Assembly (NCBI GenBank): GCA_001794055.1
Contig: MGJB01000006.1
Location: 26,168 to 90,167, forward strand
Reading direction: 5' to 3'
Source of the DNA: Candidatus Yanofskybacteria bacterium RIFCSPHIGHO2_01_FULL_41_26
GTDB taxonomy: Bacteria; Patescibacteriota; Minisyncoccia; 2-02-FULL-40-12; GWA2-44-9
DNA length: 64,000 nt
Positions within the stretch are counted from its first letter, which is position 1, and every line of letters begins with the position of its first letter. The translations under genes were made by a program, and so were the position numbers. Positions 3,806 through 48,750 of this stretch are shown here, piece by piece. The notes beneath the pieces were generated by a model, which saw only the letters and a list, made by a program, of their open reading frames with translations, was not told where the DNA came from and did no database searches.

Positions 3806-4537
3806 TTAATCCGCCAGCTGGCAGATTAGAAATTTAAGCTTCCAAGGAAGCTTGATTGACTCCCATATTATCTTGGATGACATCTTGGACTGCCCCTCTC
3901 TGCGCTCACTGAACACAATAGGATGTTCCATAAATTTTGAGCTAACCTTAAAAAGCCTGTATTTTAATTCCACCAAAAAAGCATATCCGCTTGAATTTAT
4001 CTTATCCAAGTTTATTTTTTTCAATGCATCCGCACGGTAAGCATTAAAACCGGATGTGGCATCTGTCACAGGAAGACCTAGGATAATTTTTACATATAGA
4101 TTGGCGGCTCTACTTAAAATTCTTCTGAAAAAATTCCAATTTTTTACTCCCCCGCCTTTTACATATCGAGACCCGATTACAACATCAAAGTTATCAAGTC
4201 TTTCTAATAGTGCGGGTATCTCTTTATAATCATGGGAGAAATCCGCATCCATTGTCACTATTTGATTGTAATTTTTTTCTAAAATCCACCTAAACCCCGC
4301 TAGGCTTGAACGGCCATAACTAAAATTACTATCTCTTTCCAAAAGAAACAGCTTCTTAAAATTAACGGTCATAGATTTAATTAATTCTCGTGTACCGTCA
4401 GAAGAATTATCATCCACAACCAAAACGGAAACATCCGGCAATAAATTAAAAATCGCCGGAACAAGATTTTTCAAGTTCTCTCTCTCGTTAAGGGTTGGTA
4501 TTAAAATTATACTTTTGAAATAAATACTCATACACAA
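3806..4537 (-). CDS. GT2 glycosyltransferase, dolichyl/polyprenyl-phosphate hexose synthase-like (DPM1/ArnC-like).
   Basis: N-terminus ILIPTLNERENLKNLVPAIFNLLPDVSVLVVDDNSSDGTRE, with the DDxSxDGT motif of polyprenol-P sugar synthases. Size about 240 aa. The start is uncertain (M1 or M3). It overlaps the upstream GT-C gene by about 44-50 nt. Confidence 0.8.
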   Translation of the reverse strand: MCMSIYFKSIILIPTLNERENLKNLVPAIFNLLPDVSVLVVDDNSSDGTRELIKSMTVNFKKLFLLERDSNFSYGRSSLAGFRWILEKNYNQIVTMDADFSHDYKEIPALLERLDNFDVVIGSRYVKGGGVKNWNFFRRILSRAANLYVKIILGLPVTDATSGFNAYRADALKKINLDKINSSGYAFLVELKYRLFKVSSKFMEHPIVFSERREGQSKMSSKIIWESIKLPWKLKFLICQLAD

Positions 4538-10213: not shown

Positions 10214-11306
10214 CGATTAAGTCGATCTCTTTTTTAGATATGTGGGAAAAAAGTGGTAACGATAGGACATTATTAGCGACATTATTAGTATTTACAAGCT
10301 GCTTTTTATTTACATAAAATTTATTGTAAGTTTTCTGTAAATGCAATGGCGGATAAAAATATTTTTTTGCGATAATGCCATTTGTTATAAGATGGTCATG
10401 AAGTTGATCACGGTTATAGCCGGTTTTCGACGGATTTATGTAAAGAGAGAAATCTTTAAATGTGCTCTTGCTGTTTTTATGAATGGCCTGAAATTCAATA
10501 TTTTTATCTATCCGTGAAAGTTTATTTTTAAAGTAATTTACAGCAGCCAGACGATCCTTGAGATTCTTATCAATATTTTTTAACGACTCCAGACCTATAA
10601 TGGCATGGAATTCCGACATTCTCGCATTTAAGCCATTGAATTTCGTATTATATGATCCGTCATCGCCATAATTGCGGCCAATCCGGCAAAATTCAGCCAG
10701 AGCTTTATTGTTGGTGGCGATAAGCCCTCCTTCAGCTGCAGTCAAGACTTTTGTCGGACTCAAACTGAAGACTTCGGCGTCCCCAAATACACCCACTTTT
10801 TTACCTTTGAGTTCCGAACCAAAAGCATGGGCAGCATCAAAAATAAGTCTTAAATTGTGTTTATTGCAAATTTTTCTTAGGGCGGCAACATTGCAAGAAT
10901 TGCCAAAAATTTGAGTAGCCAATATGGCACCGGTCTTCGGGGTTATCATCTTTTTAATCGAAATCGGATCTATCTCATAGGTATCTTTTTTTATATCGGC
11001 AAAAACTGGCTTTAAATTATTCCACAACACAGCATGACCAGAAGCAGAAAATGTAAAGCTTGGCAAAACAACTTCGCCCCTGACAGCTAATCCTTTCAGA
11101 ACCAGCATCAAGCCGGAAGTGCAGGAAGAAACTGCTATGCAATACTTGACCCCCAGATACTTGGAAGCATTATCTTCAAATAATTTAACGTATTTACCGT
11201 TTGTAAGAATCCCGCTTTCAATAACCTCCTTGAATCTGGGGGCATATTTTTTGTATTTTGATAATGTTGGTTTTGTTATTGGTATCATGTTTATTAAAAA
11301 TAGCAT
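10173..11306 (-). CDS. PLP-dependent sugar aminotransferase of the DegT/DnrJ/EryC1/StrS family (LegC/PseC-like).
   Basis: The family lysine motif is present: FSLSPTKVLTAAEGG. GxxG PLP region CIAVSSCTSGL. Confidence 0.85.
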   Translation of the reverse strand: MLFLINMIPITKPTLSKYKKYAPRFKEVIESGILTNGKYVKLFEDNASKYLGVKYCIAVSSCTSGLMLVLKGLAVRGEVVLPSFTFSASGHAVLWNNLKPVFADIKKDTYEIDPISIKKMITPKTGAILATQIFGNSCNVAALRKICNKHNLRLIFDAAHAFGSELKGKKVGVFGDAEVFSLSPTKVLTAAEGGLIATNNKALAEFCRIGRNYGDDGSYNTKFNGLNARMSEFHAIIGLESLKNIDKNLKDRLAAVNYFKNKLSRIDKNIEFQAIHKNSKSTFKDFSLYINPSKTGYNRDQLHDHLITNGIIAKKYFYPPLHLQKTYNKFYVNKKQLVNTNNVANNVLSLPLFSHISKKEIDLIVETIKTFYDTKRI

Positions 11307-11313
11307 TAGGCGA

Positions 11314-11721
11314 CTAATGCTGTTTAATTTTCCTTAGAACTTTAACGGGGCAACCAACGGCTATTACGTTATCCGAAATATTGGAGTTAACAAAACTATG
11401 AGCGCCAACAACAGAGTTGGTACCTATCGTAACTCCCGGCATGATCGTGCTGTGCGAGCCAATTCTGCAGTTTCGCTTTAGTATAACCCGGCCCTTTTTG
11501 TGGTCAATGGTGGATAAGGAATAAATCGAACAATGAGATCCTATCTCAACATTATTTCCAATCGTAACACCGTGTTTCGCATTTATGTAAGTAAAAGCAC
11601 CTATGTCTGTTTCCTGACCAAGCTTAAGGTTTTCCGGATGCTGAACCATCCAATTCCACTTGGTTAATTCGCCATGTTTTATCTTCGGCTTTTTCCAGTT
11701 TTTAAATCTCTTTTGAGCCAT
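11314..11721 (-). CDS. Sugar N-acetyltransferase with left-handed beta-helix (hexapeptide-repeat) fold (PglD/LegH/WbbJ-like).
   Basis: Tandem hexapeptide repeats: GNNVEIGSHCSIY, IGSHSTIMPGVTIGTNSVVGAHSFV. 135 aa. Confidence 0.8.
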   Translation of the reverse strand: MAQKRFKNWKKPKIKHGELTKWNWMVQHPENLKLGQETDIGAFTYINAKHGVTIGNNVEIGSHCSIYSLSTIDHKKGRVILKRNCRIGSHSTIMPGVTIGTNSVVGAHSFVNSNISDNVIAVGCPVKVLRKIKQH

Positions 11722-12873
11722 TTAGTAGGTTATCTTCTTTGTTAATAATCTATCGTCAATATTAATATTTTCTAGAATTTTAGCAACCCTTGGTCCAGTT
11801 TTTCCATCACCCCAAGGATTTTTTATTTTAGCTAATTTTGCCAGATATTTTTTATCGTTAAGCGACTTATTTATGGCTCGAAATATTTCATTTTTATCAT
11901 GTCCAACATTTATTACATTTTCCCCACACTGTCTTCCCGCTTGACGAGTGCCAATATTTACAACAGGCGTTTTAAAGGACGGGGATTCAATCATTGCGCC
12001 GCTTGAATTTCCTATCCAAACGACAGCCTCCCTCTCAATAGCCAAAAAATATTTATGATCAAAACTGGGATATATATGAAACAGTGGGTTTGATCTTTCT
12101 TTATTTATAGCCCAAATTATTTGGCTTCCACCCTCATCAGGGTGAGGATAAATAACAACTACTGGCAGATTGAATTTTTTTACAGCCTCGATTGTTGTGC
12201 TCATCTGCTCGCCGGCCCGATCAACTTCTTCGCTTACCGGGTGCTGGATCAATAAGATAAATTTTCCATTCGAATCAATGGCCAATTTTTTAAAAACTTC
12301 TTTTCTGGAAGGAAGTTTTTCGTTAAGCATAACGTCGATAGCCGGAGCACCGACAACGTGAATTCGCCAATTCTCTTCACCCATCTTTTTTATCCTTTCT
12401 GCTGCCTCTTTGGTAGCCGGAAAATGAATATGGGATAATTTAGTAATCGCATGCCTTGCCATATCATCAACAGTCCCACTTTTATCACCGCCATGGGTAT
12501 GAGCCATCGGAATTCTTAAATAAGTACAAGCCAATGCTGTTGCTAAGGTTTCAGGCCTATCGCCTTGAATCAAAACCAAATCAGGCCTATCCTTTCGAAA
12601 CTTGACTGTCAATTCTTTTATAAAATCAGCCACAAACTGAACGGTATCAGAATTGCTACCCATCCCAAAAATCGCTTGTATCGGCTCGGTTTTTGGAAAT
12701 TCGGAAGTAACGTATTTAGCTGTTTTTCCTAATTCCGGCATAAGATGCACACCGGTTGTGTATATCTTCAATTTTAAAAACTCGCTTTTTTTGATGGCTT
12801 TTAAAACAGGCGTTATCAATCCGAAATCAGCCCTAGTTCCAGAAATGTATGCAATTTTTTTAATTTTCCTCAT
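11722..12873 (-). CDS. UDP-N-acetylglucosamine 2-epimerase, hydrolysing type (NeuC/LegG-like).
   Basis: N-terminus IAYISGTRADFGLITPVLKAI. Motif HTHGGDKSGTVDDMARHAITKLSHIHFP (HxHGGE/D-type). Size 383 aa. Confidence 0.8.
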   Translation of the reverse strand: MRKIKKIAYISGTRADFGLITPVLKAIKKSEFLKLKIYTTGVHLMPELGKTAKYVTSEFPKTEPIQAIFGMGSNSDTVQFVADFIKELTVKFRKDRPDLVLIQGDRPETLATALACTYLRIPMAHTHGGDKSGTVDDMARHAITKLSHIHFPATKEAAERIKKMGEENWRIHVVGAPAIDVMLNEKLPSRKEVFKKLAIDSNGKFILLIQHPVSEEVDRAGEQMSTTIEAVKKFNLPVVVIYPHPDEGGSQIIWAINKERSNPLFHIYPSFDHKYFLAIEREAVVWIGNSSGAMIESPSFKTPVVNIGTRQAGRQCGENVINVGHDKNEIFRAINKSLNDKKYLAKLAKIKNPWGDGKTGPRVAKILENINIDDRLLTKKITY

Positions 12874-13919
12874 TAAATTAAATTTCTATTCAACAATGTC
12901 CCTCTTTTTATATATTTTTTAGCCCTCTTCCCAAGTACTTTATCAAAATATTTAGGAGCTAATCCATTGGCTGGTCTTTTGATATCCAGATTGTTCCGGG
13001 TAAATCTTTCGCCTTTTTTGATATCTCGAACAGCAACAATGCTTCTTCTTATCACCAATAACTTTTTCTCCGATTCTGTCGGTTTCTTAATAGCAGAACC
13101 AAGAATGATATTTACAGCTCGTACTTCATCAACCATCTTCTTAAAATCTATTCGATTAGACGAAGTCCTATGATCCGGTCCGGGAAGATTATTATCCAAA
13201 GTTAAGTGTTTCTCAATAACACAGGCCCCTAAAGAAGTGGCCATTACAGCAACCTGCGAACCGTTAGTATGATCTGAATACCCGACCAAAACATTTAGCT
13301 CCTTCATCATGGTTTGCATCGCCCTTAAATTAATTTCTTCAGAAGGACAGGGGTAGTTTGTTGTACAATGCAAAACGATTATTTTATCACCACCGGCTTT
13401 TTTTATTGTTTTAACAGCTTCTTTAACCTCTGCCATTGTTGCCATACCCGTTCCCAAAATCATCGGTTTTCCCAATTTGGCCGCATAGGTAAGAAGGGGC
13501 AAACTCGTCAGGTCTCCTGAACCGAACTTGAACGCCGGAACACTAAAATCTTTAAGCAGATCAACAGAAGCAAAACTTCCATGAGGAGTCGAAAGAAAAA
13601 TTATCCCCATTTTTTTGCAGTGAGCAATAACTTGCGGATACCAACTCTCATCAAATTCCAACTTCCTTAACATTTCTATCTGACTTTCAACTTTACCAAG
13701 ATTTTTCTTTTGATATTCAACCATCTCTCCGGATTCGGTTACCACCTGCTCTGCCCGAAAAGTCTGAAATTTAACCGCATCAGCCCCGGCACTTGCCGCC
13801 GCATCAACGAGTTTCAAGGCCAAATCCAGTTTCCCGTTGTGATTAACTCCGGCTTCGGCAATAATAAAAACAGGTTCATTGTATCCAATTCTGCGGTTTT
13901 GTATTAAAATATTTTTCAT
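12873..13919 (-). CDS. Nonulosonic acid synthase (NeuB family; N-acetylneuraminate/legionaminate/pseudaminate synthase) with C-terminal SAF domain.
   Basis: N-terminal signature IIAEAGVNHNGKLDLALKLVDAAASAGADAVKFQTF. 348 aa. The C-terminal ~60 aa are antifreeze-like/SAF. The start overlaps the upstream gene stop by 1 nt. Confidence 0.9.
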   Translation of the reverse strand: MKNILIQNRRIGYNEPVFIIAEAGVNHNGKLDLALKLVDAAASAGADAVKFQTFRAEQVVTESGEMVEYQKKNLGKVESQIEMLRKLEFDESWYPQVIAHCKKMGIIFLSTPHGSFASVDLLKDFSVPAFKFGSGDLTSLPLLTYAAKLGKPMILGTGMATMAEVKEAVKTIKKAGGDKIIVLHCTTNYPCPSEEINLRAMQTMMKELNVLVGYSDHTNGSQVAVMATSLGACVIEKHLTLDNNLPGPDHRTSSNRIDFKKMVDEVRAVNIILGSAIKKPTESEKKLLVIRRSIVAVRDIKKGERFTRNNLDIKRPANGLAPKYFDKVLGKRAKKYIKRGTLLNRNLI

Positions 13920-14611
13920 TGCGAACGTAAAATGGCTTCAGCCAATTTAAAATCAATGAGTTCATCTATGTCCACAGATCTTTCGCGTGGCATTAGAAAA
14001 ATTTCCGAATTATCGTCAATTATCTTGTCATTTTTCATAAGTATTTCTCTTTTTACAACATAAACAGCGCCGTTTATTTTATAAAGTTTCGGTAATTCTT
14101 GACTTCTTTTTTTTGTTCCAGAACCTCTCAAAAAAAGAACTGCTTTTCCATCTTTGAGTTTATACATCCATTCGGGCCTTTCACTTATTTCGCAAACCCC
14201 GATACACGAACCTGCTTTTGTTTTAAACATCTTTTCTATGGCACCATCGATGTCATCAACCGAAACAAGAGGACTGGTGGGCTGAATAAGGACTATCAAA
14301 TCCGCATCAAAACCATTTGAGGAGAAATATGCAACAGCGTGCTGAAGAACATGTTCCGGCCGAGCGGTATCAGTGGCAAGTTCGGCCGGACGGATAAATG
14401 GAACTTCGGCACCATACTTTTCACTAATCTTAGCAATTATTGGATCATCGGTAGACACAATAATCCTGTCAATATAATCTGACAATAACGCGGCTTTTAT
14501 AGCATAACTAATCATCGGCTTGCCATTGAGCTTCTTTATGTTTTTTCTTGGTAATCTTTTAGACCCACCTCTTGCTGGTACAATGGCTAATATTTTTTTA
14601 TTTTTATACAT
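13916..14611 (-). CDS. CMP-nonulosonic acid synthetase (acylneuraminate cytidylyltransferase family, NeuA/LegF-like).
   Basis: N-terminus ILAIVPARGGSKRLPRKNIKKLNGKPMISY matches the CMP-NeuAc synthetase P-loop-like motif. 231 aa. Confidence 0.85.
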   Translation of the reverse strand: MYKNKKILAIVPARGGSKRLPRKNIKKLNGKPMISYAIKAALLSDYIDRIIVSTDDPIIAKISEKYGAEVPFIRPAELATDTARPEHVLQHAVAYFSSNGFDADLIVLIQPTSPLVSVDDIDGAIEKMFKTKAGSCIGVCEISERPEWMYKLKDGKAVLFLRGSGTKKRSQELPKLYKINGAVYVVKREILMKNDKIIDDNSEIFLMPRERSVDIDELIDFKLAEAILRSQ

Positions 14612-14617
14612 AAAATT

Positions 14618-15871
14618 TTATTTTACCTGATGTCTTAGCTTCAATTTTCCTTTTTCTTTTTTCCACAAATGAGGCGAACGAAATTTGTCAGCTAACTCCA
14701 TAAAATATTTCTTATTCATCAAAGATCGTTTAAACATCTTGGAGGCTTTGGGAAATTCTTTTTTTGTAATGCTTAAATACTCCCACAACTCATCAGCAAA
14801 TCTTTCTGGAAATTCTCCGTCAAATCTTTTTATCAGAGAGACTCCTTCTTCACGGGTTATTTCACCCGAACGAACTTCTTGGGAAGCATCATATGTCGCC
14901 CGGCCGATACCGAATTTGATAAAGGTGGTGTAATAATGAAGATCGTCGACCTTATCGTCAATACTATTATATTTGCTGTAGGTACCGGGTGTTCTTTCCG
15001 GCGAGGCCTGAAAATTGCCATTCTCAACTGCATAATAATATGTTTCTTGAGGGTGCCACTTGATATAATAACCTAGATAGTGAACCTCAACCTTGTTTTT
15101 TAATATATCCTTCGGATTGGCCGGAAGATAAGCATTAAGATCATTTTTACTCACTCCATATTTTTTTATCAGGTCAGAAAAAGAAGTTCCGCCAAGGTAG
15201 ATCTTCGACTTATCTTTGGCAGTAAAATAAGACCAATCACGTTTTGCTTTTTCATTATCAGCAATTGGATTGCCATATTCAGCCTCGTTTTCTCCATACA
15301 ATACCAGGGGTATTTTATATAAAACGGCTAATTTTGGCGCCAAAGCTTTCTGGCCAATAATAAACGGCTGGAAGGGATGGAAGAGATTTTCTGTAGCCAA
15401 ACGTGTAAGCAAACGATGCACTCTTCCGTTTGGAGTAAATAAAATATTATCCAAACCTGAACATATCCACGCCTGAAAATTTTTCCAGCCCCAAGAAGTA
15501 TAAACATGAGGTGCCCAAGTTACCGTAAGAGGATGCATCCCGTATTTATATTTCAGTAAATGTGAAGCATAAAAACTATCTTTCCCCCCCGAACCAGGAA
15601 TAATACAGTCGTAAGAACCGTCATTTTTTCTAAAACGATTCAACAGCCTTAGTAGTTCTTTCTCCCGTTTTGTCCAATCAATTGTTTTCTTTTTATCCAT
15701 CACGCGACAAGCATCACAAATCCCGTTTTTATCAAAATTTATAGTTTCTTTTTTGCTTTCTTTGGTATGAGAATATTCTACTACCGAATTCGGGCGTTGA
15801 TTTGAAATAACACATCTTTTGCAAAATCTAACTTCGGATGGCAAGCCAAATAAGGTTTTTGTTTTTTTCAT
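14618..15871 (-). CDS. N-acetyl sugar amidotransferase (WbpG/PseA-like PP-loop ATP-pyrophosphatase).
   Basis: PP-loop SGGKDS within IIPGSGGKDSFYASHLL. N-terminal CxxC pairs (CKRC...CDAC). It sits directly upstream of HisH/HisF-like genes, which is the classical triad. Confidence 0.75.
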   Translation of the reverse strand: MKKTKTLFGLPSEVRFCKRCVISNQRPNSVVEYSHTKESKKETINFDKNGICDACRVMDKKKTIDWTKREKELLRLLNRFRKNDGSYDCIIPGSGGKDSFYASHLLKYKYGMHPLTVTWAPHVYTSWGWKNFQAWICSGLDNILFTPNGRVHRLLTRLATENLFHPFQPFIIGQKALAPKLAVLYKIPLVLYGENEAEYGNPIADNEKAKRDWSYFTAKDKSKIYLGGTSFSDLIKKYGVSKNDLNAYLPANPKDILKNKVEVHYLGYYIKWHPQETYYYAVENGNFQASPERTPGTYSKYNSIDDKVDDLHYYTTFIKFGIGRATYDASQEVRSGEITREEGVSLIKRFDGEFPERFADELWEYLSITKKEFPKASKMFKRSLMNKKYFMELADKFRSPHLWKKEKGKLKLRHQVK

Positions 15872-16524
15872 AAGGCTTTAACTAAATTAACAAAGTTTTT
15901 TATTATTCGGAGTCCGACTTGGCCGCTTTTTTCAGGATGGAATTGAAAACCATATACATTTCCCTTCTGAACAGTAGAGCAAAATTGATATCCTCCATAG
16001 ATAGTAGTTGTTAAAATCGCTTTTTTATCAATTGGCTCAAGTATATATGAGTGGACAAAATATACATAAGGATCTTTCCCGATAGAGTTGAGAATATCTC
16101 CTTCAGGTTTTGTGCTATTTGAGAGTGTTATTTTGTTCCATCCGATATGAGGTATTTTGATTCCCATTTTAAGCCCTGGGAACTTTACCACTTTCCCAGA
16201 AATTATATCAAGGCCCCTAAATTCGCCAAACTCATATCCCTTTGACAACAGAAGCTGCGCCCCAAGACAAATTCCCAAAATTGGCTTTCCTTTTTCGGCA
16301 AATTTTTTAATTTCCCCTTCTAGCCCACGTGCCTTTATGCCTTCCATTCCCGCTTCAAAAGAACCTACGCCCGGTAAAACTAAAGCATCTAATCGATTTA
16401 TTTCTTCAGTGTTTTCAACGATTACCACATCGTCAATGAATTCTCTTAATGCTTTGCGCAGGCTATAAAGATTGCCTACCCCATAATCAACAATGCCGAT
16501 TTTTTTATTATTAGACCCTGACAT
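15868..16524 (-). CDS. hisH: Glutamine amidotransferase, imidazole glycerol phosphate synthase HisH-like subunit. It is a paralog used in sugar acetamidino formation.
   Basis: IGIVDYGVGNLYSLRKAL, with catalytic-triad context (GICLGAQLL, HSY...FHPEKS). There are no other his genes nearby. Confidence 0.85.
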   Translation of the reverse strand: MSGSNNKKIGIVDYGVGNLYSLRKALREFIDDVVIVENTEEINRLDALVLPGVGSFEAGMEGIKARGLEGEIKKFAEKGKPILGICLGAQLLLSKGYEFGEFRGLDIISGKVVKFPGLKMGIKIPHIGWNKITLSNSTKPEGDILNSIGKDPYVYFVHSYILEPIDKKAILTTTIYGGYQFCSTVQKGNVYGFQFHPEKSGQVGLRIIKNFVNLVKAL

Positions 16525-17269
16525 TGATTTTTTTCTTAAATAAATATTCTTTTAAATTTTTTATTTTAAAATCTCCGTAGTGGAATGAGGTGGCAATGGC
16601 AACAGCATCGATTTTGGTTTTTTTTATTACTTTAACAACAGATTCCTTTGTCCCCGCCCCACCATGAACTACAAGGGGTACTTTACAAAATTTAGAAACC
16701 TCACTAATCAATTCCGTATCATATCCTTTTCGCGAACCGTCTCTGTCAATCGAAGTTATAACCACCTCGCCTACACCTAAAACAAGAGCTTTCCTTATCC
16801 ACTCAACCGCATTAATGCCTGTATGTTCCCGGCCGCCATCAGTATATGCTTCCCAAGTCCCATCATTTCTGTGTTTTGCTTCTACCGAAAGAACAATGCA
16901 CTGGGAACCGAATTTTTTTACCGCTTCGTTCAGAAACTTGGGTTTTTTTATTCCATAAGTATTTATGGCGACCTTGTCGGCTCCAGCTCGAAGAGCATTA
17001 TTTATATCATTAACAGAACGTATGCCTCCGCCAACTGTTATGGGAATGAAAATTTCTTCTGATACTGACCGCAGAAGATCAAAATCAAAATTTCTCTGGT
17101 ATAAACTGGCAACAATATCCATGCATAAAAGTTCATCGGCGCCATCTTTATAATATTTAAATGCAAGCTCTTTAGGATTTCCGACAACCCTAAGCCCTTC
17201 AGTAAAAATACCTTTCACAACATTAGTGCCCTTAATATCAAGACGGGGAATTATTCTTATATTTTCCAT
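16511..17269 (-). CDS. hisF: Imidazole glycerol phosphate synthase cyclase HisF-like subunit ((beta/alpha)8 barrel). Paralog partnered with the WbpG-like amidotransferase.
   Basis: IPRLDIKGTNVVKG...ADELLCMDIVAS...PITVGGGIRS...VVHGGAGT, typical of HisF. Confidence 0.85.
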   Translation of the reverse strand: MENIRIIPRLDIKGTNVVKGIFTEGLRVVGNPKELAFKYYKDGADELLCMDIVASLYQRNFDFDLLRSVSEEIFIPITVGGGIRSVNDINNALRAGADKVAINTYGIKKPKFLNEAVKKFGSQCIVLSVEAKHRNDGTWEAYTDGGREHTGINAVEWIRKALVLGVGEVVITSIDRDGSRKGYDTELISEVSKFCKVPLVVHGGAGTKESVVKVIKKTKIDAVAIATSFHYGDFKIKNLKEYLFKKKINVRV

Positions 17270-17418
17270 TGTCTCAGTTTTTGAAATTCATTTTCTTTTT
17301 CATAATTTATAACATTAATCAACACTTCAGTCCAGAATTAAAATATTATACCTGCCGGTATAAAAATAAATCCCCACATTGACGTGAGGATGATCTTAAA
17401 TTAAACTTTTCTCAAGGT

Positions 17419-18981
17419 TCAGGATTTTATCAATGACAGATTGGATCGGCGAGAAGCGCCTTCCCATCGCACATCTGAAAATTTCGGCTCGCCATGAAGC
17501 TCTCGCCATGTTTTTTCATATTCTTTTATTCGCTTAATATCTCGATTTACCATTAATTCTCTGAGGCCGAGCAGCTCAACAGCGGTGAAGTTTTCGCAAA
17601 TGACAGCCGTCATCTTTGTGGCATCTCCTAGATCTGTTAAAAACGCATCCAGGTCGCCGTCATATTGAGCCAGAATTTTATCTTTATATTTGTTGAACCA
17701 TTCTGTGCCCGGATATGGAGTAGCAAAAAAGGGCATAACCTCAATACCGAGCCGTTCCCAAGCCTGAACACAATCAATCAAGCTGTCAAAAAAGTCATCC
17801 GGAAAGCCCATCATTTGATTAGGAATTGGCCGTATCCCTGCTTCCAGGGTTATTTTCAGAGATCTCTCGTTAGTTTCTGGAGTAGAACCTTTGCCTACAT
17901 TTTTAAGAACTCGTTTGGAAAAAGATTCGTAGCCATAAACTAATTGGCAACAGCCGGCATTATGCATCTGTTTAAGAATTTGTGGATTAGCCAGCGCTGC
18001 ATGACTGGTTCCACCCCAGTGTATTCCATGACATTTTTTCGGGTCATGAGACACGCCATCGCGTACACATTGAGGCTGTAAACCCTCTTTGATCCACAGA
18101 TCGCATAAAGCTGGCAGCCAGGTATTCTTTGAAGCAGAATTCATTGCCAGAAGGTTTTCATCATAGAAAATAATGAAATCAACTCCAAATCTGTCTCTCA
18201 TGTGTTTGACCATATCTACCAGATAACGAGGACTGTGCATTCTATTAATACGGTCGTGAGTAAAAACAACATCAGCTTTATCATTTCTTTGATCTTCATA
18301 CTGAAGGTCTCCTGCCAATCCAAGATGAAAACAGAAACGGCATATAAACGGACAACCGAAACTTCCATTTACATCCATGCGTCTTTTGGCGGTGAAACTT
18401 TCTTCGCTATAAAGGAGCGCACTGTTTTTGAAATATATTTCCATAGGCAGCATATCCCATGTCGGATATGGTAATTGATCAATGTCTTGAACAAGAGGCC
18501 GCGGCGGATTTAAATGTAATTGTCCCCTCTCATCCTTCCAGATAATTCCAAGCGTAGATGACCAATCGGTTTTTTTATCGTCTATTTTTTGCATTATTTC
18601 CGGCAGAGTTAAGAATGCTTCTCCAACAACTCCAATATCGATCTCCGGCAAGAGTTCCATCAAGTCTCGAGGCATACTGGTTAAAAGTCCGCCTCCGACC
18701 ATGCGAAGCGATCGAGGAGAATATTGTTTGGCATACCGGAGGGCTTTTTTTACCCAGCTGTATGTAGTTGTTATGCCACCAAGCCCGATAATATCCCAAT
18801 CATCGGCCTTCAAAATCGCACAAATGGTTTTATCATCAGGCCTCCAAGCGTTGGCATCAAATAATTGGACATGATGCCCCTCTTTATCAGCAATCGCCGC
18901 CAACTGGGCAATTCCGTAAGGAATATGTTTTGGGTTGTCTTCTTGGCGTACAACGGGGTTAATGAGCAGAATTTTGGCCAT
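17419..18981 (-). CDS. Cobalamin-binding (class B) radical SAM protein, copy 1.
   Basis: N-terminal B12-binding Rossmann-like domain (KILLINPV...IIGLGGITT...MVGGGLLTS). Radical SAM cluster motif CPFICRFC (CxxxCxxC). The ORF track start at 18999 is a TTG. The in-frame ATG at 18981 is preceded by GGAGAAAGAG and abuts the upstream gene stop, so it is preferred. Confidence 0.75.
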   Translation of the reverse strand: MAKILLINPVVRQEDNPKHIPYGIAQLAAIADKEGHHVQLFDANAWRPDDKTICAILKADDWDIIGLGGITTTYSWVKKALRYAKQYSPRSLRMVGGGLLTSMPRDLMELLPEIDIGVVGEAFLTLPEIMQKIDDKKTDWSSTLGIIWKDERGQLHLNPPRPLVQDIDQLPYPTWDMLPMEIYFKNSALLYSEESFTAKRRMDVNGSFGCPFICRFCFHLGLAGDLQYEDQRNDKADVVFTHDRINRMHSPRYLVDMVKHMRDRFGVDFIIFYDENLLAMNSASKNTWLPALCDLWIKEGLQPQCVRDGVSHDPKKCHGIHWGGTSHAALANPQILKQMHNAGCCQLVYGYESFSKRVLKNVGKGSTPETNERSLKITLEAGIRPIPNQMMGFPDDFFDSLIDCVQAWERLGIEVMPFFATPYPGTEWFNKYKDKILAQYDGDLDAFLTDLGDATKMTAVICENFTAVELLGLRELMVNRDIKRIKEYEKTWRELHGEPKFSDVRWEGASRRSNLSLIKS

Positions 18982-18982: not shown

Positions 18983-20050
18983 TTATTCTCTTTCTCCAAC
19001 CCTTGATCCTACTAACTCTTGATTATTTCTCTGACTGAATTTAGATAAGAATTCAGTCAGAGGGACGAAATGAACCAGTTCATCAAAAAGTATGCCGCCT
19101 TCAGTGCAATTGTATGTAATGCAACCAGCATCTTTGGCTAAATCCAGAAAAATATTCCGATACCAAAGATATGCCGGATCGGTATACCATGTCTCATTCA
19201 AGTAGGGATTATAAACCTGTGTAAAAGCCTCTGGCGTTCTATCTCCAAAAAGAGCAACAAGATCTCGGTAGTATTGAGTATTGAGAAGCGGAGTACCAGG
19301 CGCATAGCTTAAATCCATACCAACCAACGCAACATGTTTTCGTTTTAGTATTGCATGCGCAAAAATCCAAGCAGCAGTTCCAACATTGCCGCCGGTAAGC
19401 ATACAAGGTATGTGATTATTCTCAAAAAGCTCCCTGGAAAGACTCTCCGATTTGTCATAATCTTCATAAATAGGATTCCACCAATACAGTTCCATTCCCG
19501 ATTCCACGCATCTTTCCGTAACAGAAATATCGACACTGGTAGATATTATCAACTTGATCTTGGGACCATATCGGTTTACAAGCTCGATAGTTTCACGATT
19601 ATAGCGAATCTGATCTTGGTGATGACCAGGATCAAGATCTTGGCGAAGAAAATAATCATCTTCTAATCCCTTGTCCATTTTAGTATCGCCAAACAATCTT
19701 ACCATGCGGTGGCTTCTACCAAATGCGCCAGGATCAAGCGTAATAACAAAATGAGGAATAAGACCCTTTCTTAAACAATGCCCTAAAGACCCGTCGGCGA
19801 CAATAATATCACCAGAAAATCCTGAAGCCAAAATCTTAGCCACAGGATTTTTTCTATGCAAACTTGGTCCTCCAACAACTACAATAGCGGCTCCTTTCGG
19901 CTCCAAATGTTCTATAACAGACAAATCATCCACCGTTTTACTAAAATATTTTCGATTTTTAGCGGCATTATCCAGACCAAGCCGGCCGGTTTTTATAGCT
20001 GTCGCTTCGCTCATATAACAAGCAAGTTTATCTGCCAAATTAGATATCAT
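18983..20050 (-). CDS. DUF115/MptE-like (Maf-type) Rossmann-fold protein, putative nonulosonic-acid glycosyltransferase.
   Basis: Region GAAIVVVGGPSLHRK...DIIVADGSLGHCLRKGLIPHFVITLDPG resembles the DUF115 core of motility-accessory-factor glycosyltransferases. It is adjacent to the nonulosonic-acid module. The ORF track start at 20104 is a TTG without SD. The ATG at 20050 follows GGAGAGG and is preferred. Confidence 0.45.
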   Translation of the reverse strand: MISNLADKLACYMSEATAIKTGRLGLDNAAKNRKYFSKTVDDLSVIEHLEPKGAAIVVVGGPSLHRKNPVAKILASGFSGDIIVADGSLGHCLRKGLIPHFVITLDPGAFGRSHRMVRLFGDTKMDKGLEDDYFLRQDLDPGHHQDQIRYNRETIELVNRYGPKIKLIISTSVDISVTERCVESGMELYWWNPIYEDYDKSESLSRELFENNHIPCMLTGGNVGTAAWIFAHAILKRKHVALVGMDLSYAPGTPLLNTQYYRDLVALFGDRTPEAFTQVYNPYLNETWYTDPAYLWYRNIFLDLAKDAGCITYNCTEGGILFDELVHFVPLTEFLSKFSQRNNQELVGSRVGERE

Positions 20051-20336
20051 CTTTAGTTCCTCTCCAAGTAAAATCTTTCTTAACAAACGTGATGCTGCCA
20101 CCAAGTTTTTTTAAAGCCGCGGCTTCAAATTCTTCTCCCAATGAAACCGGCTTTTCTTCTTTTGGCGCATCTGTATCTTTTAATCCCGGAATCTTATAGT
20201 TCCCCTTTAAAATTTTGTCCATTGTCCAGTTCCTTTTTAAATTGTCAAAAATCTAAGCTGTCTGTCACCATACAACAAAAACCATCGTTTTTCAAGACAG
20301 GTTGTAAAAACATCTTTTTTGTGAAAGAATTTGGGA

Positions 20337-22112
20337 ATGTATTTTAATTCTCCGGATAATCTTCCAGAATCAGAAAAAAAATATGAATATCTGCATTCGA
20401 AAGAAAGAATAGAACACTTGCGTCGTATTATTAACGGCCGGCCCGTGGCCATTTTGGCCGCTGGCCCCTCAATCAGTGAATTAGAAGCAAGAATCGAAGA
20501 ACTATCTCAAACCGATATTTGTTATTTTGGGATGAATTTCTTTTTTGTTCAAGAAGATAATATTTTAAAAAAGATAAATAAGCGTTTTTCCGTGTTAACT
20601 ACGGGAGCCAATAAGGGTTTGCTCCATGTTTACGGCGGGGCCAGCCTTTTTGATAGGATCACTGATTTTTTGAATAGAAATGATGATAATTTGTTAATTT
20701 CCAGTTTCTACGGAAACCAGCTTAATCTGCTTGGTCCCCACTTTAACCTGCAGGAATTTTTAGATAAATATAACAATAAACTCTTTTTCCCCAGCTATAG
20801 TACCAATAGAACTGTTCCGGACAACAATCGTCCCATGCATTTCTTCGCGAGTAATTCTCTCGCCGGACTAATATATATGGCCATAATCGGCAAGGCCTCT
20901 AAAATTGTTCTGTTCGGATCAGACGGCTACACCCTTGAAAAAAATCCTGAAAAAACGTATTACCGTTCCAAAGAATATCTCTCTAACAAATATGAGTATG
21001 AGAGAAATAATCAACAGAAACTAGTGGAACCGCTTATTAACGACGCTAACAAGCTCTTCAACCCTATTGTTCCCCTTTCTTTGCGAAATATCTACAAAAC
21101 CTACCCCATTAAACCTGTTCCAATTTTAAATTGTTCCGAAGTTAGTTATTATACTCCTTTTCCAAAGACCTCATACAACGACACTTTTGCCTTCTTGTTG
21201 GGTAAAAAGAATATTGAAGAAATTGTTGATCTCCGCATCCCAACAGCCTCAATCATCATTCCGTCTTCCGACGACACAAATGAATTGCGGACCACTCTGG
21301 AAAGTATTGCAAAACAATCATATTCAAATTATGAGACAGTCGTTATCAAAAGGAGTCCAAATTTTTTGGATACTATGGAAAACGCCCTATCCTTGACCAA
21401 AGGAAAATATATTTTCTATTGCCATTCGGGCTACGGCTACCGAGACCAAGATTGGTTAAATTCCTGCATAGCAATATTGGAAAATAGGCCCCGGATTTCT
21501 TTAGTATGCGGCATACCCGAAAACCAGCTTACTGACCCTCCCTGGCCGGAAAAAAAGTTCCTCTATTACTGGCTCAAGAAAAAGATTTTCTTCCCTCCAA
21601 ACACAATTTGCGTACGAAAAAAAGTACTCGAAAAATGCCTGCTCCCCCAGGAAGATAATGCAAAAACCGACACTGAATTGGAAAGTTGGCTAAACTTTAA
21701 TCTGCGCTTTAATATTAACGGCTATCTGCCTACTTTTATTTCGACGGTTTCCGATAATAATCGGAATGACTTCATCGACGGTAATTCGCTAGATATTTTC
21801 AGAAAAAAAATTGCATTCTACAGAAAAGGCCTCATTCTTAAAAAAACCTGTCATCATTTCAGAGACGGTGACGACAACATTTTACCTGGAAAATTCTATT
21901 TGAGCATGTTTTTACTATATAAACCAGCTAAAATAATTGAAACCAAATTACTCTGTCCTTTATATCCTCGTTTAAACATTATTAAGCGAATCGCCAGAAA
22001 TACTGTCAAGCAAATAGTCCTACGGATATTAAGTTTAACTTCGTCTTCCATTGAGCGAAAAGCTGTCAATTTGTATCGATCCCTAAAGAAAAAAAGGTTG
22101 CGCGAAAAATAA
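20337..22112 (+). CDS. Two-domain protein: N-terminal DUF115/Maf-like domain plus C-terminal GT2-like glycosyltransferase domain.
   Basis: The N-terminus GRPVAILAAGPSISELEARIE...GANKGLLHVYGGAS parallels the neighbouring DUF115 protein. The C-terminal half has a GT2 signature: ASIIIPSSDDTNELRTTLESIAKQSYSNYETVVI...GKYIFYCHSG. The ORF track begins at a TTG at 20331. The first ATG is at 20337. Confidence 0.5.
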   Translation: MYFNSPDNLPESEKKYEYLHSKERIEHLRRIINGRPVAILAAGPSISELEARIEELSQTDICYFGMNFFFVQEDNILKKINKRFSVLTTGANKGLLHVYGGASLFDRITDFLNRNDDNLLISSFYGNQLNLLGPHFNLQEFLDKYNNKLFFPSYSTNRTVPDNNRPMHFFASNSLAGLIYMAIIGKASKIVLFGSDGYTLEKNPEKTYYRSKEYLSNKYEYERNNQQKLVEPLINDANKLFNPIVPLSLRNIYKTYPIKPVPILNCSEVSYYTPFPKTSYNDTFAFLLGKKNIEEIVDLRIPTASIIIPSSDDTNELRTTLESIAKQSYSNYETVVIKRSPNFLDTMENALSLTKGKYIFYCHSGYGYRDQDWLNSCIAILENRPRISLVCGIPENQLTDPPWPEKKFLYYWLKKKIFFPPNTICVRKKVLEKCLLPQEDNAKTDTELESWLNFNLRFNINGYLPTFISTVSDNNRNDFIDGNSLDIFRKKIAFYRKGLILKKTCHHFRDGDDNILPGKFYLSMFLLYKPAKIIETKLLCPLYPRLNIIKRIARNTVKQIVLRILSLTSSSIERKAVNLYRSLKKKRLREK

Positions 22113-23238: not shown

Positions 23239-25122
23239 ATGAGGTCCTCTGATCTGGGAATGATAGCAAATATTTCTCATGCTTTTCGTCCAAATATAAC
23301 CTTAGAAATGTTTCGAAGAATGTGCCTAATCAGATATTTCGAGTTAAATGTAAAGAAAGCATATGACCAAGGATTGATGCCAAAGGCTCCAATTTATCTT
23401 TCTATTGGGCAGGAGACAATTTTTGCAGCCTTATCCATGATTTTTGAAAAAACAGCTTTATTCGGCCAACACAGAGGACATGGCATTTACCTAGCATTCG
23501 GAGGCAATCCAGTAAAACTCATTGACGAGTTACTTGGCCGACCTACCGGTTGTGCCAAAGGCATGGGAGGTTCAGCATCTATTCACTGCCCTGAAATAGA
23601 GATGATCGGTCACGACGGATTGATGGGAACACAAGTTGCTGACGCCGTTGGCAGTACATTGCCTTATAAAGAGACGGCTATTACTTTTATGGGCGATGCT
23701 AGCGCTGAAGAGGGATTTGTTCTTGGGCCAATCGGTTATGCGTTTACCAAACAACTTCCGGTTCTTTTTGTTGTTTGTGATAATGGACTGTCTATTTTAA
23801 CAAAAACAGAAGTTCGCCGAAGCTGGACCATGGCAAGACATGCTCACTTTGGCATGCCATCAATTGATATTACCGACGATCCATGGCTGATAATGCACTA
23901 TGCCAAAGAGTTAAGTAATCCCCTACCCGCTTTAATGAATATTAGAGTTTGCCGAGAACTTTGGCATGCTGGAACAGGAAAAGACAGTGAACCAGAATGG
24001 AATCGATTTAAAATGGTAAGAGAAGAGATGAGACAATTAGACCTTGGCGTATCGGTTGAAACCATAGAAAACGAAATAAAAAGGTGGATAGACAACTTAT
24101 GGGATAAAAAACTTCAAGAACCAACTCCTTGTATATTATCCCCCAGAAAAGTATTTACCATCATTGATCCGAATTACAAATATGAAAGAAACCCGATTCC
24201 TCCACCCAGCAGAATGAAAGTAAAAGAGGTGATTAAGACTTTTACTCGTGATACTTTAAAACGTGGCGGTAAAGCAATGGGCCAATGCCTAACTGCTGTA
24301 GGTTGGGTAGGCGGAACAGTGCCGGAAATGACGGAACAGGAAGGATTGATTGAATTGTCGATGGATGATACATCTGGTTCGGGAATCGCCGTTGGCTGTT
24401 CCAGAAAAGTACCGACTATTTACATAGTCCGCTATCAAGGATTCCAGTGGTTCAACGGCGCATTCATTGCTAACCTTGCCGCAAAATCAAAAGAAATGTG
24501 GGGCATTTCCCGCAGATTATTTGTCCGTTCCATCGCCATGGAGGGCGGTATCGGACCCGTAGCATCTAACAGTCATCACGGAATGTTCACAAGGATACCT
24601 GGTCTCACGGTTGTTGCTCCGATGACACCCGGAGAATACCTACAAATTGTTGAGTATTTTAATAGCCACGATGATCCGATGTATGTAAGCGAGCACAGAA
24701 AAAGTTTTGACATTGATTGTGAGATGCCGGATGTTATAAATCATCCTTCTCACATCACCTTATTTCCAATATCCGCAGCAAGATTAAACACCGCAGAAGC
24801 GGCAAATATTCTTCTGAAAGAAGGGATAATTTGCAACATAATTCATGTTCTTTGGCTTAAACCATTTATTATCAGCAGTGAAATACTGACATCTTTAGAA
24901 AATTCTTACTACGGGGGCGTGGTCCTTGATACCGATTACGAAAACGGAGCCGCAAAATGCATTGCCTGCGATATTATGCAATTTACAAAAAAGAGGGTCC
25001 GTGTTCTCGGTCTTGAAGAAAGAACTGCCGGATTTGCCCCGCACCTTGACAACCTACCGCCATCTACAGAAAAAATATGTGAATGTATACGAAAAATAGT
25101 TGATGGCAAGCAAGAAAAATAA
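23239..25122 (+). CDS. Thiamine-diphosphate-dependent enzyme, a fused 2-oxoacid dehydrogenase E1 alpha plus beta (transketolase-like) polypeptide.
   Basis: N-terminal half has the TPP motif GDASAEEGFVLG...VLFVVCDNG (GDG-X25-NN type). C-terminal half (from about aa 330) has a transketolase pyrimidine-binding/E1-beta-like region (GGIGPVASNSHHGMF...). The fusion is 627 aa. Confidence 0.7.
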   Translation: MRSSDLGMIANISHAFRPNITLEMFRRMCLIRYFELNVKKAYDQGLMPKAPIYLSIGQETIFAALSMIFEKTALFGQHRGHGIYLAFGGNPVKLIDELLGRPTGCAKGMGGSASIHCPEIEMIGHDGLMGTQVADAVGSTLPYKETAITFMGDASAEEGFVLGPIGYAFTKQLPVLFVVCDNGLSILTKTEVRRSWTMARHAHFGMPSIDITDDPWLIMHYAKELSNPLPALMNIRVCRELWHAGTGKDSEPEWNRFKMVREEMRQLDLGVSVETIENEIKRWIDNLWDKKLQEPTPCILSPRKVFTIIDPNYKYERNPIPPPSRMKVKEVIKTFTRDTLKRGGKAMGQCLTAVGWVGGTVPEMTEQEGLIELSMDDTSGSGIAVGCSRKVPTIYIVRYQGFQWFNGAFIANLAAKSKEMWGISRRLFVRSIAMEGGIGPVASNSHHGMFTRIPGLTVVAPMTPGEYLQIVEYFNSHDDPMYVSEHRKSFDIDCEMPDVINHPSHITLFPISAARLNTAEAANILLKEGIICNIIHVLWLKPFIISSEILTSLENSYYGGVVLDTDYENGAAKCIACDIMQFTKKRVRVLGLEERTAGFAPHLDNLPPSTEKICECIRKIVDGKQEK

Positions 25123-29248: not shown

Positions 29249-29276
29249 AAAGAACTCCGAATGAGTTCTTTTTTAT
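29247..29276. terminator. Bidirectional rho-independent terminator between convergent genes: aaaagaactc-cgaat-gagttctttt.
   Basis: 7-10 bp stem flanked by an A-run upstream and a T-run downstream, so it is symmetric. It lies exactly between the stop at 29248 (+) and the stop at 29276 (-). Confidence 0.55.
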
Positions 29277-30643
29277 TATGCAAGAGGATTTATGTCATCG
29301 AACGGAAATGTATTTCTGTTAAGCTCAGATGCGGATAGTCCGGCTTCTTTAATAAACGCGACCAGTTCAAGATAATTATTTACTATTTGTTCATTAGTCA
29401 AGGTTTTTCCCCAAGAAGCGTTTTCGTGATATTGAAAAGTTAACCTGGGTTTTTTATTATCGAGATTATGGATGTGCATTGTATTTTCCCAATCCGTCTC
29501 GATATTTCTTATTCCGAATTTATCAGGGTTGCGAAACACCTCTGTTCCGGGTCTGATAGTAAATAACGAAAGATATATCAAGTCGGGTTGTGTTTCTTTT
29601 ATGAAATTCAGTGTTAACTCAACTATATTGTCTGGCTCGCCAGGAAGACCCATTATTAGATAAATCCTAGCTTCAATGCCATTTGCTTTCAACATTGCAA
29701 TCGTATCTTTGGCTTTCTGAACACTGATCCTTTTGTTTATTAGATTAAGCGATGGTTGCCAGACGCTTTCTACCCCAAGACCGAGGGATATACAACCTGA
29801 TTGAAAGGCTAATCCAGCCAGTTCAGGTGTAATTCCGTCAACACGACACTGGCCACGCCAGAAAATATCTGCCCTTCCGATGGCTTCCAGTTCGGCAATA
29901 GCGCTGGAACGTTTTAATGGCAAAGCAATCTCATCAACTAAAGCTACGCCCTGTATTCCATATTCACGCTTTAAATATTCAATTTCATTCTCGATAAGTT
30001 CCGGAAGGCGAAAACGTATCCCTGGCGTCCCTTCTCTGGCTGTCCGCAAAGCACAAAAATGACAATTATACGGACAGCCTCGGCTGAAAATAACATTCGT
30101 GGAAACAAGGTCATTAAAACCAGGCTTGCTTTTTAAAGTCATCATTTTTCTTCGGGCTGTAGTACTTTTGGGCAGGAATTTTCTGTTTGGATGGCAATAC
30201 TCATTTATATCTATGACGCCCTGTTGCCTATAAATTTGTTGAAGTTTATTACAAGCCAGATCATTAACGGCCGCTATTATCGTTAACTCACCCTCTCCTA
30301 ATATGAGTGAGTCAAATATTCGAAGTGATTCTTGAGGAAATTCAACAGCATGAGGTCCGCCGGCAATGTGAACCGCTCTGGGATATTGCCGGCGCAGCAT
30401 TGCAACAATGGCTTTCTGTTCATTTATATCAAGTGTATAGATTGAATGAAGATAAACATCGCATTCCGGAATATGATAAAGGGCAAATTCTCTTTTTATT
30501 CCCCTTAGATCAGGAAGACAAAGCTCTACTCTGCTTCCAAAATATTCTTCCAAAATCGTAAGTATCTGTAGATGAGTAAAAGGATCCCCTCGGAACGGAT
30601 CATTGAGATAGTGGCTACTTGGTAAGATAAAACCTATCTTCAC
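29276..30643 (-). CDS. Cobalamin-binding (class B) radical SAM protein, copy 2.
   Basis: N-terminal B12-binding domain (KIGFILPS...HIAGGPHAV). Radical SAM motif CPYNCHFC. GTG start preceded by GAGAGGGGA. Confidence 0.75.
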   Translation of the reverse strand: MKIGFILPSSHYLNDPFRGDPFTHLQILTILEEYFGSRVELCLPDLRGIKREFALYHIPECDVYLHSIYTLDINEQKAIVAMLRRQYPRAVHIAGGPHAVEFPQESLRIFDSLILGEGELTIIAAVNDLACNKLQQIYRQQGVIDINEYCHPNRKFLPKSTTARRKMMTLKSKPGFNDLVSTNVIFSRGCPYNCHFCALRTAREGTPGIRFRLPELIENEIEYLKREYGIQGVALVDEIALPLKRSSAIAELEAIGRADIFWRGQCRVDGITPELAGLAFQSGCISLGLGVESVWQPSLNLINKRISVQKAKDTIAMLKANGIEARIYLIMGLPGEPDNIVELTLNFIKETQPDLIYLSLFTIRPGTEVFRNPDKFGIRNIETDWENTMHIHNLDNKKPRLTFQYHENASWGKTLTNEQIVNNYLELVAFIKEAGLSASELNRNTFPFDDINPLA

Positions 30644-48738: not shown

Positions 48739-48750
48739 ATTAAGCCGACG

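Follow-up and report, generated by a model that had tools for sequence, protein, structure and literature searches.

The window analysed here is a 64-kb stretch of a metagenome-assembled genome of Candidatus Yanofskybacteria, a very small bacterium from groundwater, which belongs to Parcubacteria in the candidate phyla radiation (CPR). Two divergent genes in it, gene A on the minus strand and gene B on the plus strand, were read in an earlier note as a pair of DUF115/Maf-like proteins, the latter fused to a domain of glycosyltransferase family 2 (GT2), which might O-glycosylate a surface protein with nonulosonic acid. Both open reading frames (ORFs) are present in the ORF listing where the note had placed them, and their products are identical to A2915_03100 (gene A, 355 aa) and A2915_03110 (gene B, 591 aa) from a contig of 262,617 bp. 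The region 20105-20330, which had been described as intergenic, holds a conserved minus-strand gene of 60 aa at 20040-20222, corresponding to the public A2915_03105. This small gene, gene A, and a gene for a radical S-adenosylmethionine (radical-SAM) enzyme constitute a conserved cassette. The features of the locus are as follows.

20040-20222, minus strand: small protein of 60 aa, the first gene of the cassette (ORF equal to A2915_03105).
18983-20050, minus strand: gene A, a predicted "mini-Maf" of 355 aa with the MptE-like/DUF115 catalytic core only (PF01973 and structural match to Maf).
17419-18981, minus strand: B12-binding radical-SAM enzyme, the third gene of the cassette (PF02310 and PF04055).
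17370-17391, minus strand: terminator-like hairpin with a T-run, 3' of the radical-SAM gene (pattern scan).
20223-20336, no strand: divergent spacer of 114 bp between the small-protein gene and gene B (sequence read).
20337-21230, plus strand: N-terminal domain of gene B, approximately residues 1-298, a remote MptE/sialyltransferase-like Rossmann domain (sub-threshold PF01973 and Foldseek).
21231-22112, plus strand: C-terminal GT2-like domain of gene B, of the glycosyltransferase A (GT-A) type, with a basic/hydrophobic tail (family profile against PDB).

Gene A most plausibly starts with the ATG at 20050, not the TTG at 20104, and the resulting 355 aa is the length of the database protein. Gene B starts with the plus-strand ATG at 20337 and encodes 591 aa, according to the ORF listing and translation. 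Promoter-like hexamers are present in the spacer between them, with no enrichment over shuffled sequence in the pattern scan.

Gene A is a genuine DUF115 protein, as had been proposed: it matches PF01973 (MptE-like/DUF115/Maf_flag10) with the E-value 1.2e-12 and 48.4 bits, over the gathering cutoff of 34.6 bits. The motif on which the proposal was based is present as GAAIVVVGGPSL...ADGSL...TLDPG. The family is tightly conserved at about 340 aa and returned 884 matches in the protein search; a weak match to PseD was found in NCBIfam (E = 3.4e-6). Among 44 sequences of the family, the GPS motif, D86, D106, D246, and the C-terminal NCTEGG are invariant. The AlphaFold 2 model of gene A is a single domain with a predicted local distance difference test score (pLDDT) of 90.3. 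When this model was compared with PDB by Foldseek, the top match was the Maf protein of Magnetospirillum magneticum (5mu5; E = 9.9e-7, probability 1.00, 288 columns), in agreement with the expected likeness to Maf, followed by MptE (8sd5; E = 1e-4) and then by SteA and ST8SiaIII (E = 0.02). In the profile alignment with Maf, D106 corresponds to E324, D246 to D415, and NCTEGG to NCSDG. A preprint, which cites Sulzenbacher et al., describes E324 and D415 of Maf as essential for activity on the basis of mutagenesis (bioRxiv 10.1101/2020.06.03.131540). Because of the Pfam match, the fold match, and the alignment of these residues, gene A is classified, by sequence and predicted structure, as a true Maf-type DUF115 protein that is cut to the catalytic core, without the N- and C-terminal domains of flagellar Mafs.

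The order of a small ORF, gene A, and a B12-binding radical-SAM gene is not restricted to the window. It was also found in three further genomes, one of Yanofskybacteria, one of Elusimicrobia, and one that is unclassified. In a scan of one genome per species (GTDB), 155 genomes encode gene A. The numbers of loci given here for gene A come from the best 80 loci, 45 of which have full 10-kb flanks, and co-occurrence was counted with the window's own proteins as queries. A small ORF lies directly upstream of gene A in 76 of the 80 loci, and an ortholog of the radical-SAM enzyme accompanies it in 78, including all 45 loci with full flanks. The carriers span about a dozen phyla; the best 80 loci are from CPR, Elusimicrobia, Dehalococcoidia/Chloroflexota, Methylomirabilota (Rokubacteria), Nitrospirota, Planctomycetota, Acidobacteriota, Omnitrophota, Latescibacterota, Myxococcota, and Alpha-/Gammaproteobacteria. 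Two cultured carriers, Paramagnetospirillum caucaseum SO-1 and Rhodospirillaceae bacterium LM-1, are among them. In the window, the small-protein gene and gene A overlap by 11 nt, with the stop codon of the former overlapping the ATG of the latter (ATGATATCTAA), and the gap between gene A and the radical-SAM gene is 1 nt. The hairpin at 17370-17391 is a possible end of a three-gene transcription unit, as judged from its sequence; in the promoter/terminator scan, terminator-like sites were no more numerous than in shuffled sequence.

Some loci depart from this simple arrangement. In several loci of the Rokubacteria/Methylomirabilota type (L034 at 10843-12929, and also L032, L037, L041, L058, and L062), genes for a class-I SAM methyltransferase and a polysaccharide deacetylase of carbohydrate esterase family 4 (CE4) are located between gene A and the radical-SAM gene. 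In L004 (1-21038), the cassette lies between insertion sequence elements with DDE and rve transposases, the radical-SAM gene is reduced to the B12-binding part, and no nonulosonate genes are nearby; it looks like a decaying copy. The sole archaeal cassette is in L038, from a bin labelled Nitrosotalea sp. Its small protein is nearly identical to those of the Rokubacteria loci L026, L042, and L060, and by this sequence likeness the contig is probably a mis-binned Rokubacteria contig.

The small protein has no Pfam match. The window copy shows LKGNY near the N-terminus and FEAAALKKLGGSITFVKK..F.W at the C-terminus. In the family, which counts 149 cluster representatives that are nearly all 45-120 aa long, both termini are conserved, the N-terminal one as M..(F/L)LKGN(Y/F) and the C-terminal one as FE..AL..LGGSI.FV.K..F.W. 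In three proteins (P0027, P0034, and P0036), it is fused to the N-terminus of gene A, and these natural fusions favour a role as a subunit or adaptor. The top profile match of the small protein, P0248 (1287 aa), contains 13 repeats of NCGGTITYTKTSGxF matching profile positions 36-54 only, and was discarded as a repeat-inflated false positive. The possibility that ...KLGG/S represents the double-glycine leader of a ribosomally synthesized and post-translationally modified peptide (RiPP) was judged weak: the hydrophobic residues are spaced one position off, no C39 peptidase domain is present in the exporters, and the small protein occurs fused to gene A.

The radical-SAM enzyme contains the canonical CxxxCxxC motif as CPFICRFC, and its mean column identity across phyla is 67%. 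Its profile detected only distant relatives with solved structures, namely AprD4, TokK, and CysS (E about 1e-5), and TsrM. At the level of profile comparison, the matches to AprD4, TokK, and CysS are too weak for inferring the substrate. The sole PDB match obtained with phmmer, an orotidine monophosphate decarboxylase, is spurious.

The cassette is adjoined by a nonulosonic-acid module, as the earlier note had stated.

8834-17269, minus strand: legionaminic-acid-type module for nonulosonate activated with cytidine monophosphate (CMP), with acetamidino genes (Pfam/TIGRFAM matches).

This module includes CBS and dehydratase genes, a DegT aminotransferase, a hexapeptide acetyltransferase, NeuC (TIGR03568), NeuB (TIGR03569), the CMP-transferase CTP_transf_3, WbuX (TIGR03573), HisH, and HisF. 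It is likely the donor pathway for gene A. The association is general: NeuB or a CMP-transferase is found within 10 kb of gene A in 44 of the 45 loci with full flanks. Counted separately, the CTP_transf_3 CMP-sugar synthetase was found in 64 of the 80 loci (40 of the 45 with full flanks), NeuB in 54 (40 of 45), and NeuC in 45 (36 of 45), while the acetamidino genes WbuX/HisH/HisF were found in about 20 of 80. Clustering and Pfam analysis of the neighbours revealed Gfo/Idh/MocA oxidoreductases, PtmE-like CBS-nucleotidyltransferases, LegB-like dehydratases, and DegT aminotransferases, with a MarR-type regulator just upstream and, in 18 loci, an ATP-binding cassette (ABC) exporter directly downstream. 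Such a gene set is typical of legionaminic-acid biosynthesis. Flagellin is encoded within 10 kb in only three of the 80 loci, and no flagellin family was matched among the window genes scanned against Pfam, which agrees with the non-flagellar setting assumed at the outset.

Gene A shares several characters with the Mafs that transfer nonulosonates to flagellin (5mu5, the proteins of C. botulinum and G. kaustophilus, and PseD/PseE/Maf4 of C. jejuni). These are PF01973, the modified GT-A fold, the GPS motif, acidic residues at the positions of E324 and D415, NC(S/T)(D/E)G, and genomic linkage to the synthesis of CMP-legionaminic acid. The differences are equally clear. Gene A consists of the 355-aa core only, whereas the Mafs compared have 441-822 aa with N- and C-terminal domains; it is not part of a flagellar locus (flagellin in 3/80 loci); and it is paired with the B12 radical-SAM enzyme (78/80) and the 60-aa protein (76/80). 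Maf-2 of Shewanella oneidensis, a short Maf, has no acceptor-binding domain and depends on GlfM, a small specificity factor encoded in cis. GlfM is an 89-aa predicted four-helix bundle that resembles FliS/FliT and bridges to flagellin; bipartite and tripartite, partner-dependent Maf arrangements both exist (bioRxiv 10.1101/2023.12.03.569772). By analogy, Maf-2/GlfM would be the closest functional precedent for the partner of gene A: the cassette likewise combines a short Maf with a small cis-encoded conserved protein as its putative partner. The partner in the cassette differs from GlfM in its length of 55-70 aa and its motifs (LKGNY...LGGSIxFVxK), there is no flagellin, and the radical-SAM gene is an additional obligatory component. 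The archaeal 6-hydroxymethyl-7,8-dihydropterin pyrophosphokinase MptE (8sd5) belongs to the same Pfam family as gene A. It is the best PDB match in sequence-profile comparison both for gene A (E = 1.9e-5) and for the N-terminal domain of gene B (E = 5.6e-4), and in Foldseek it ranked second for gene A and top for the gene B domain. MptE differs in its length of about 230 aa and its role in pterin biosynthesis; A and B are larger and are located in glycan loci beside CMP-sugar synthetases, with no pterin genes near.

For gene B, the proposed fusion of a DUF115-like domain with a GT2 domain holds at the level of the family, while the window copy is below the thresholds and its GT2 part is degenerate. 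Gene B alone scored 16.7-18.7 bits against PF01973, under the threshold of 34.6, and 20.0 bits against PF00535, for which the cutoff is 23.3. Among 60 relatives, 44 match PF01973 with the N-terminal domain (E ≤ 0.05, best 7.5e-7) with no competing family, and 41 match PF00535 (best 1.2e-15). The profile of the gene B family detected the GT2 structures K4CP (2.4e-16), 3bcv (3e-12), and SpsA (3.4e-11), and its match to MptE (E = 5.6e-4) extends over the GPS motif. These sequence comparisons indicate that the N-terminal domain is a remote relative of PF01973, not a formal member. Concerning the motif said to be shared with gene A, G..V.ILAAGPS is found in gene B and the D(G/S)...LDPG part is absent. 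The family is rare, with 93 matches in 5.8 billion clusters. The AlphaFold 2 model of the N-terminal domain (pLDDT 87.1) is similar to MptE (8sd5; probability 0.97) and to the GT29 sialyltransferase ST8SiaIII (5bo8; E = 0.011, probability 0.92). Besides the GPS motif, its invariant residues are E50, C62, R114, H168, and D196 (GADG).

In the GT2-like domain, no canonical DxD is present anywhere in the gene B family; a single D, N, Y, H, or S is observed at the position, and the window copy reads HSGYGY there. In the Yanofskybacteria clade, about 22 residues are deleted from this domain, including the 'DD' nucleotide-binding segment after beta-2, and the C-terminal domain of the window copy has no PDB match at E ≤ 10 with phmmer. 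The degenerate state of the domain argues against a classical bifunctional polymerase in the window genome. Despite the degeneracy, the GT2-like domain is under selection, with many residues invariant in the family. Besides the fused form, it is encoded in some loci by a separate neighbouring gene or by an additional paralog, and the N-terminal domain also occurs alone or as a tandem triplicate. Examples of these architectures are three tandem genes with the N-terminal domain only (L124-L127, e.g., L127 at 9968-12479), split N-terminal and GT2-like genes (L116, L118, L121, L129, L134, and L145), and a fused gene B followed by an additional stand-alone GT2-like paralog (L095-L100).

Two-module polymerases are the known proteins with a comparable combination. 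SiaD of N. meningitidis W/Y is a capsule polymerase with a hexosyltransferase and a sialyltransferase. Gene B likewise joins a sialyltransferase-like domain and a GT-A (GT2) domain, and K4CP (2z86/2z87) is the best PDB sequence match of the GT2 domain of the family (E = 2.4e-16). Gene B differs from these polymerases in that its sialyltransferase-like domain was assigned by the tests made to none of the recognised CAZy sialyltransferase families, and in that its GT2 domain lacks the canonical DxD family-wide and is truncated in the window genome. The sialyltransferase families PF00777 and PF06002 gave no match among 60 members of the gene B family. To GT29 and GT42 enzymes (ST8SiaIII and CstII), the likeness is at the fold level, seen with ST8SiaIII for the N-terminal domain of gene B and for gene A; the GPS-type N-terminal motif of gene B is like that of CstII. 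Membership of the A and B families in GT42 is not claimed, as hhalign against a CstII sequence fits the motifs only and is not significant. Of the Maf motifs, gene B retains GPS and G-x-D alone, and its C-terminal part is GT2-like, not a tetratricopeptide repeat (TPR) domain.

Between genes A and B no relationship was detected, and the reading as a related pair is not supported. In BLASTP between them the E-value is 4, by which recent paralogy was rejected, and the hhalign probability between the two families is 3%. Their adjacency is specific to the lineage of the window: genes of the B family were found in none of the 80 A loci, and the A cassette in two of 66 B loci, both close relatives of the window. 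The probable functional partners of gene A are the upstream small protein and the downstream B12 radical-SAM enzyme, not gene B. In two look-ups and 64 metagenome loci, gene B is downstream of a module with a short NeuB (no SAF domain), a Hydrolase_3 phosphatase, CTP_transf_3, aminotransferases, and at least one B12 radical-SAM enzyme. Of the B loci, 36 are 6 kb or longer; NeuB was found in 20 of these 36 and a CMP-transferase in 20; NeuC was found in only two B loci. A module of this kind is also present in the window, distinct from the legionaminic-type module at 8.8-17.3 kb.

45650-53931, no strand: second ulosonic-acid module (Pfam matches; resembles the usual neighbourhood of the B family).

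It contains a SIS isomerase, a short NeuB without a SAF domain, a short-chain dehydrogenase/reductase, three Hydrolase_3 phosphatases, a B12 radical-SAM enzyme, and a second CTP_transf_3. Closer to gene B, downstream of it and of a GHMP (HddA-like) kinase, a 627-aa protein encoded at 23239-25122 is a fusion of an E1 dehydrogenase alpha-like part and a transketolase-pyrimidine-binding, beta-like part. Related split E1/transketolase genes also neighbour gene B in L005.

The whole 64-kb window is one glycan island. In addition to the two modules, it encodes an initiating phosphoglycosyltransferase, a Wzx-like flippase, an ABC exporter, several GT2 and family 4 glycosyltransferases, YfhO, a TagF-like enzyme, and a GDP-mannose dehydratase. 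Five genes for B12-binding radical-SAM enzymes (17419-18981, 29276-30643, 32270-34153, 38514-40658, and 51420-53144) and one for a HemN-like radical-SAM enzyme (34212-35597) are present. This number suggests unusually heavy radical tailoring of surface sugars.

The explanation favoured here, to which about an even chance is given, is that A and B share the MptE/Maf/sialyltransferase-like fold as independent and very distant members, and that each uses a CMP-activated ulosonic acid from a pathway of its own in the surface-glycan island, which exceeds 60 kb in length. Gene A would bind CMP-legionaminic acid, here probably the 5-acetamidino form, and pass the sugar to an acceptor, which may be a protein or a glycan. 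It would act within a translationally coupled cassette composed of the 60-aa partner, gene A, and the cobalamin-dependent radical-SAM enzyme, which appears to travel with legionaminic-acid clusters. The small protein may bind gene A and serve as its adaptor or specificity subunit, in functional analogy with GlfM and Maf-2, and the radical-SAM enzyme may tailor the sugar or the acceptor, most likely by C-methylation. The N-terminal sialyltransferase-like domain of gene B probably transfers the second ulosonic acid of the island. Because the GT2-like domain has no canonical DxD and here has also lost the nucleotide-binding segment, acceptor binding or scaffolding is considered a more likely function for it than a second glycosyl transfer. 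In this explanation, the folds and families, the conserved residues, the cassette, the fusions, and the genomic associations are observed, and the donor, the acceptor, the part played by the small protein, and the chemistry of the radical-SAM enzyme are inferred.

Several observations weigh against this explanation. The sequence profile puts gene A, with its GPS..DG..PD motif, nearer to MptE than to Maf (E = 0.47, not significant alone), and its acidic residues are common to MptE and Maf, so they do not discriminate a kinase from a transferase. For the N-terminal domain of gene B, the assignments are weak: the best Foldseek match, MptE, has an E-value of 3.5e-3, Maf is not among the top 50 matches, and no acidic residue is found at the position equivalent to Maf E324, only D196 in GADG. 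Against the CstII sequence, the hhalign probability of the gene B family is 1.5%. The family comparison between A and B, at 3%, is of the same side, and their adjacency gives no functional link. All three cassette proteins show very high conservation across phyla, and a conserved small-molecule substrate would account for such sequence conservation at least as well as protein acceptors specific to single lineages.

In a different explanation, the cassette is a tailoring complex rather than a transferase. With its nucleotide-sugar-binding fold, gene A would keep CMP-legionaminate or one of its precursors in place for the B12 radical-SAM enzyme, or act as an MptE-like kinase/pyrophosphokinase, and other glycosyltransferases of the island would do the final transfer. 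It is regarded as unlikely. The sequence motif of gene A is nearest to that of the MptE pyrophosphokinase, the extreme conservation of the three proteins is consistent with it, and the nearest solved relatives of the radical-SAM enzyme, AprD4, TokK, and CysS, modify small molecules, including sugars. The class-I methyltransferase and CE4 deacetylase genes that separate gene A from the radical-SAM gene in loci of the Rokubacteria type, and the two CTP_transf_3 paralogs in many loci, also point in this direction. On the other hand, the overall fold match of gene A is longer and better to the Maf glycosyltransferase, including the C-terminal NC(T/S)(E/D)G, no pterin or folate genes are nearby, and no nonulosonate pathway is known to need a pyrophosphokinase. 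The small protein could alternatively be the acceptor or carrier. Gene A would then attach a nonulosonic acid to it, for example to the invariant Ser of LGGS, and the radical-SAM enzyme would modify the product, yielding a glycosylated small protein or peptide, or a carrier-bound tailoring intermediate. Among the genes conserved with gene A, that of the small protein alone does not encode an enzyme; it is translationally coupled to gene A, and its product contains an invariant KGN motif as well as the Ser; the ABC exporter lies directly downstream in 18 loci, and flagellar Mafs are reported in the literature to be protein Ser/Thr O-glycosyltransferases. This explanation is nevertheless quite unlikely. 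Fusion to the N-terminus of gene A suits a subunit or domain better than a released product, and the small protein, conserved at both ends in different phyla, shows no leader/core pattern. An N-terminal extension of the size of a C39 peptidase is lacking in the exporter (the stop-to-stop segment is 649 residues, and the 644 aa match only ABC_membrane and ABC_tran), and the small protein has neither a signal peptide nor a hydrophobic segment.

The interpretation in the earlier note was that A and B together are machinery for direct protein O-glycosylation of the flagellin type, acting on pilin, S-layer, or another surface protein. The Maf-like fold and catalytic residues of gene A, the non-flagellar setting in a CPR organism, and the adjoining nonulosonate genes are compatible with it. 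A and B are, however, never together outside close relatives, and neither has a recognisable protein-binding domain such as TPR. No gene for a Ser/Thr-rich surface protein, a kind of gene that the note had proposed to look for elsewhere in the genome, is present in the window, nor is any other candidate acceptor protein encoded there. Because the island has the full machinery for assembly and export of a lipid-linked glycan and no candidate acceptor protein, protein O-glycosylation is possible, and it is not favoured over glycan assembly; as an account of A and B together it is decidedly unlikely. Beyond the favoured explanation, a more far-reaching proposal can be made tentatively, and is likewise thought unlikely to be right. 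The small protein, the mini-Maf, and the B12 radical-SAM enzyme may represent an unrecognised phylum-spanning system. In it, a nonulosonic acid would be placed on a dedicated small carrier or acceptor and then radical-methylated, as a new type of carrier-protein-based or RiPP-like sialic-acid chemistry, or the cassette would place a C-methylated legionaminic-acid derivative on non-flagellar surfaces of many uncultured lineages. Gene B would in addition stand for a new sialyltransferase-like glycosyltransferase family that acts with an ulosonic acid tailored by radical-SAM enzymes.

Neither the Maf-type fold nor the nonulosonate context is new. What appears to be undescribed is the cassette in which a small partner and a radical-SAM enzyme accompany gene A, the range of phyla that carry it, and the DUF115-like plus GT2-like architecture of gene B. 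In the open literature searched, the cassette was not described, no paper joined nonulosonic acids with radical-SAM enzymes, and DUF115/Maf proteins were treated almost entirely in the context of flagellin. Transferases for bacterial sugars that resemble sialic acid, among them legionaminic and pseudaminic acids, are poorly known outside flagella. A minimal Maf core with a 60-aa partner and a cobalamin radical-SAM enzyme in legionaminic-acid clusters, with gene A in at least 155 species-level genomes, is a testable candidate for tailoring and installing these sugars on non-flagellar surfaces, and the gene B family is a candidate for a new sialyltransferase-like module. With five B12 radical-SAM genes and two ulosonic-acid pathways, the island also illustrates the share of a CPR genome of about 1 Mb that is devoted to exotic surface glycans.

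Some other genes of the island were recognized. Three sizeable ORFs on the minus strand have no Pfam match (4488-5636, 44409-45554, and 48751-49362). The first of these, located between a GT2 gene and that of the Wzx-like flippase, may encode a polymerase or ligase. A YfhO-like membrane protein of the GT-C type (57717-60104) and a TagF-like glycerophosphotransferase (60081-61460) are also encoded, and they hint at decoration with a teichoic-acid-like polymer in a CPR bacterium.

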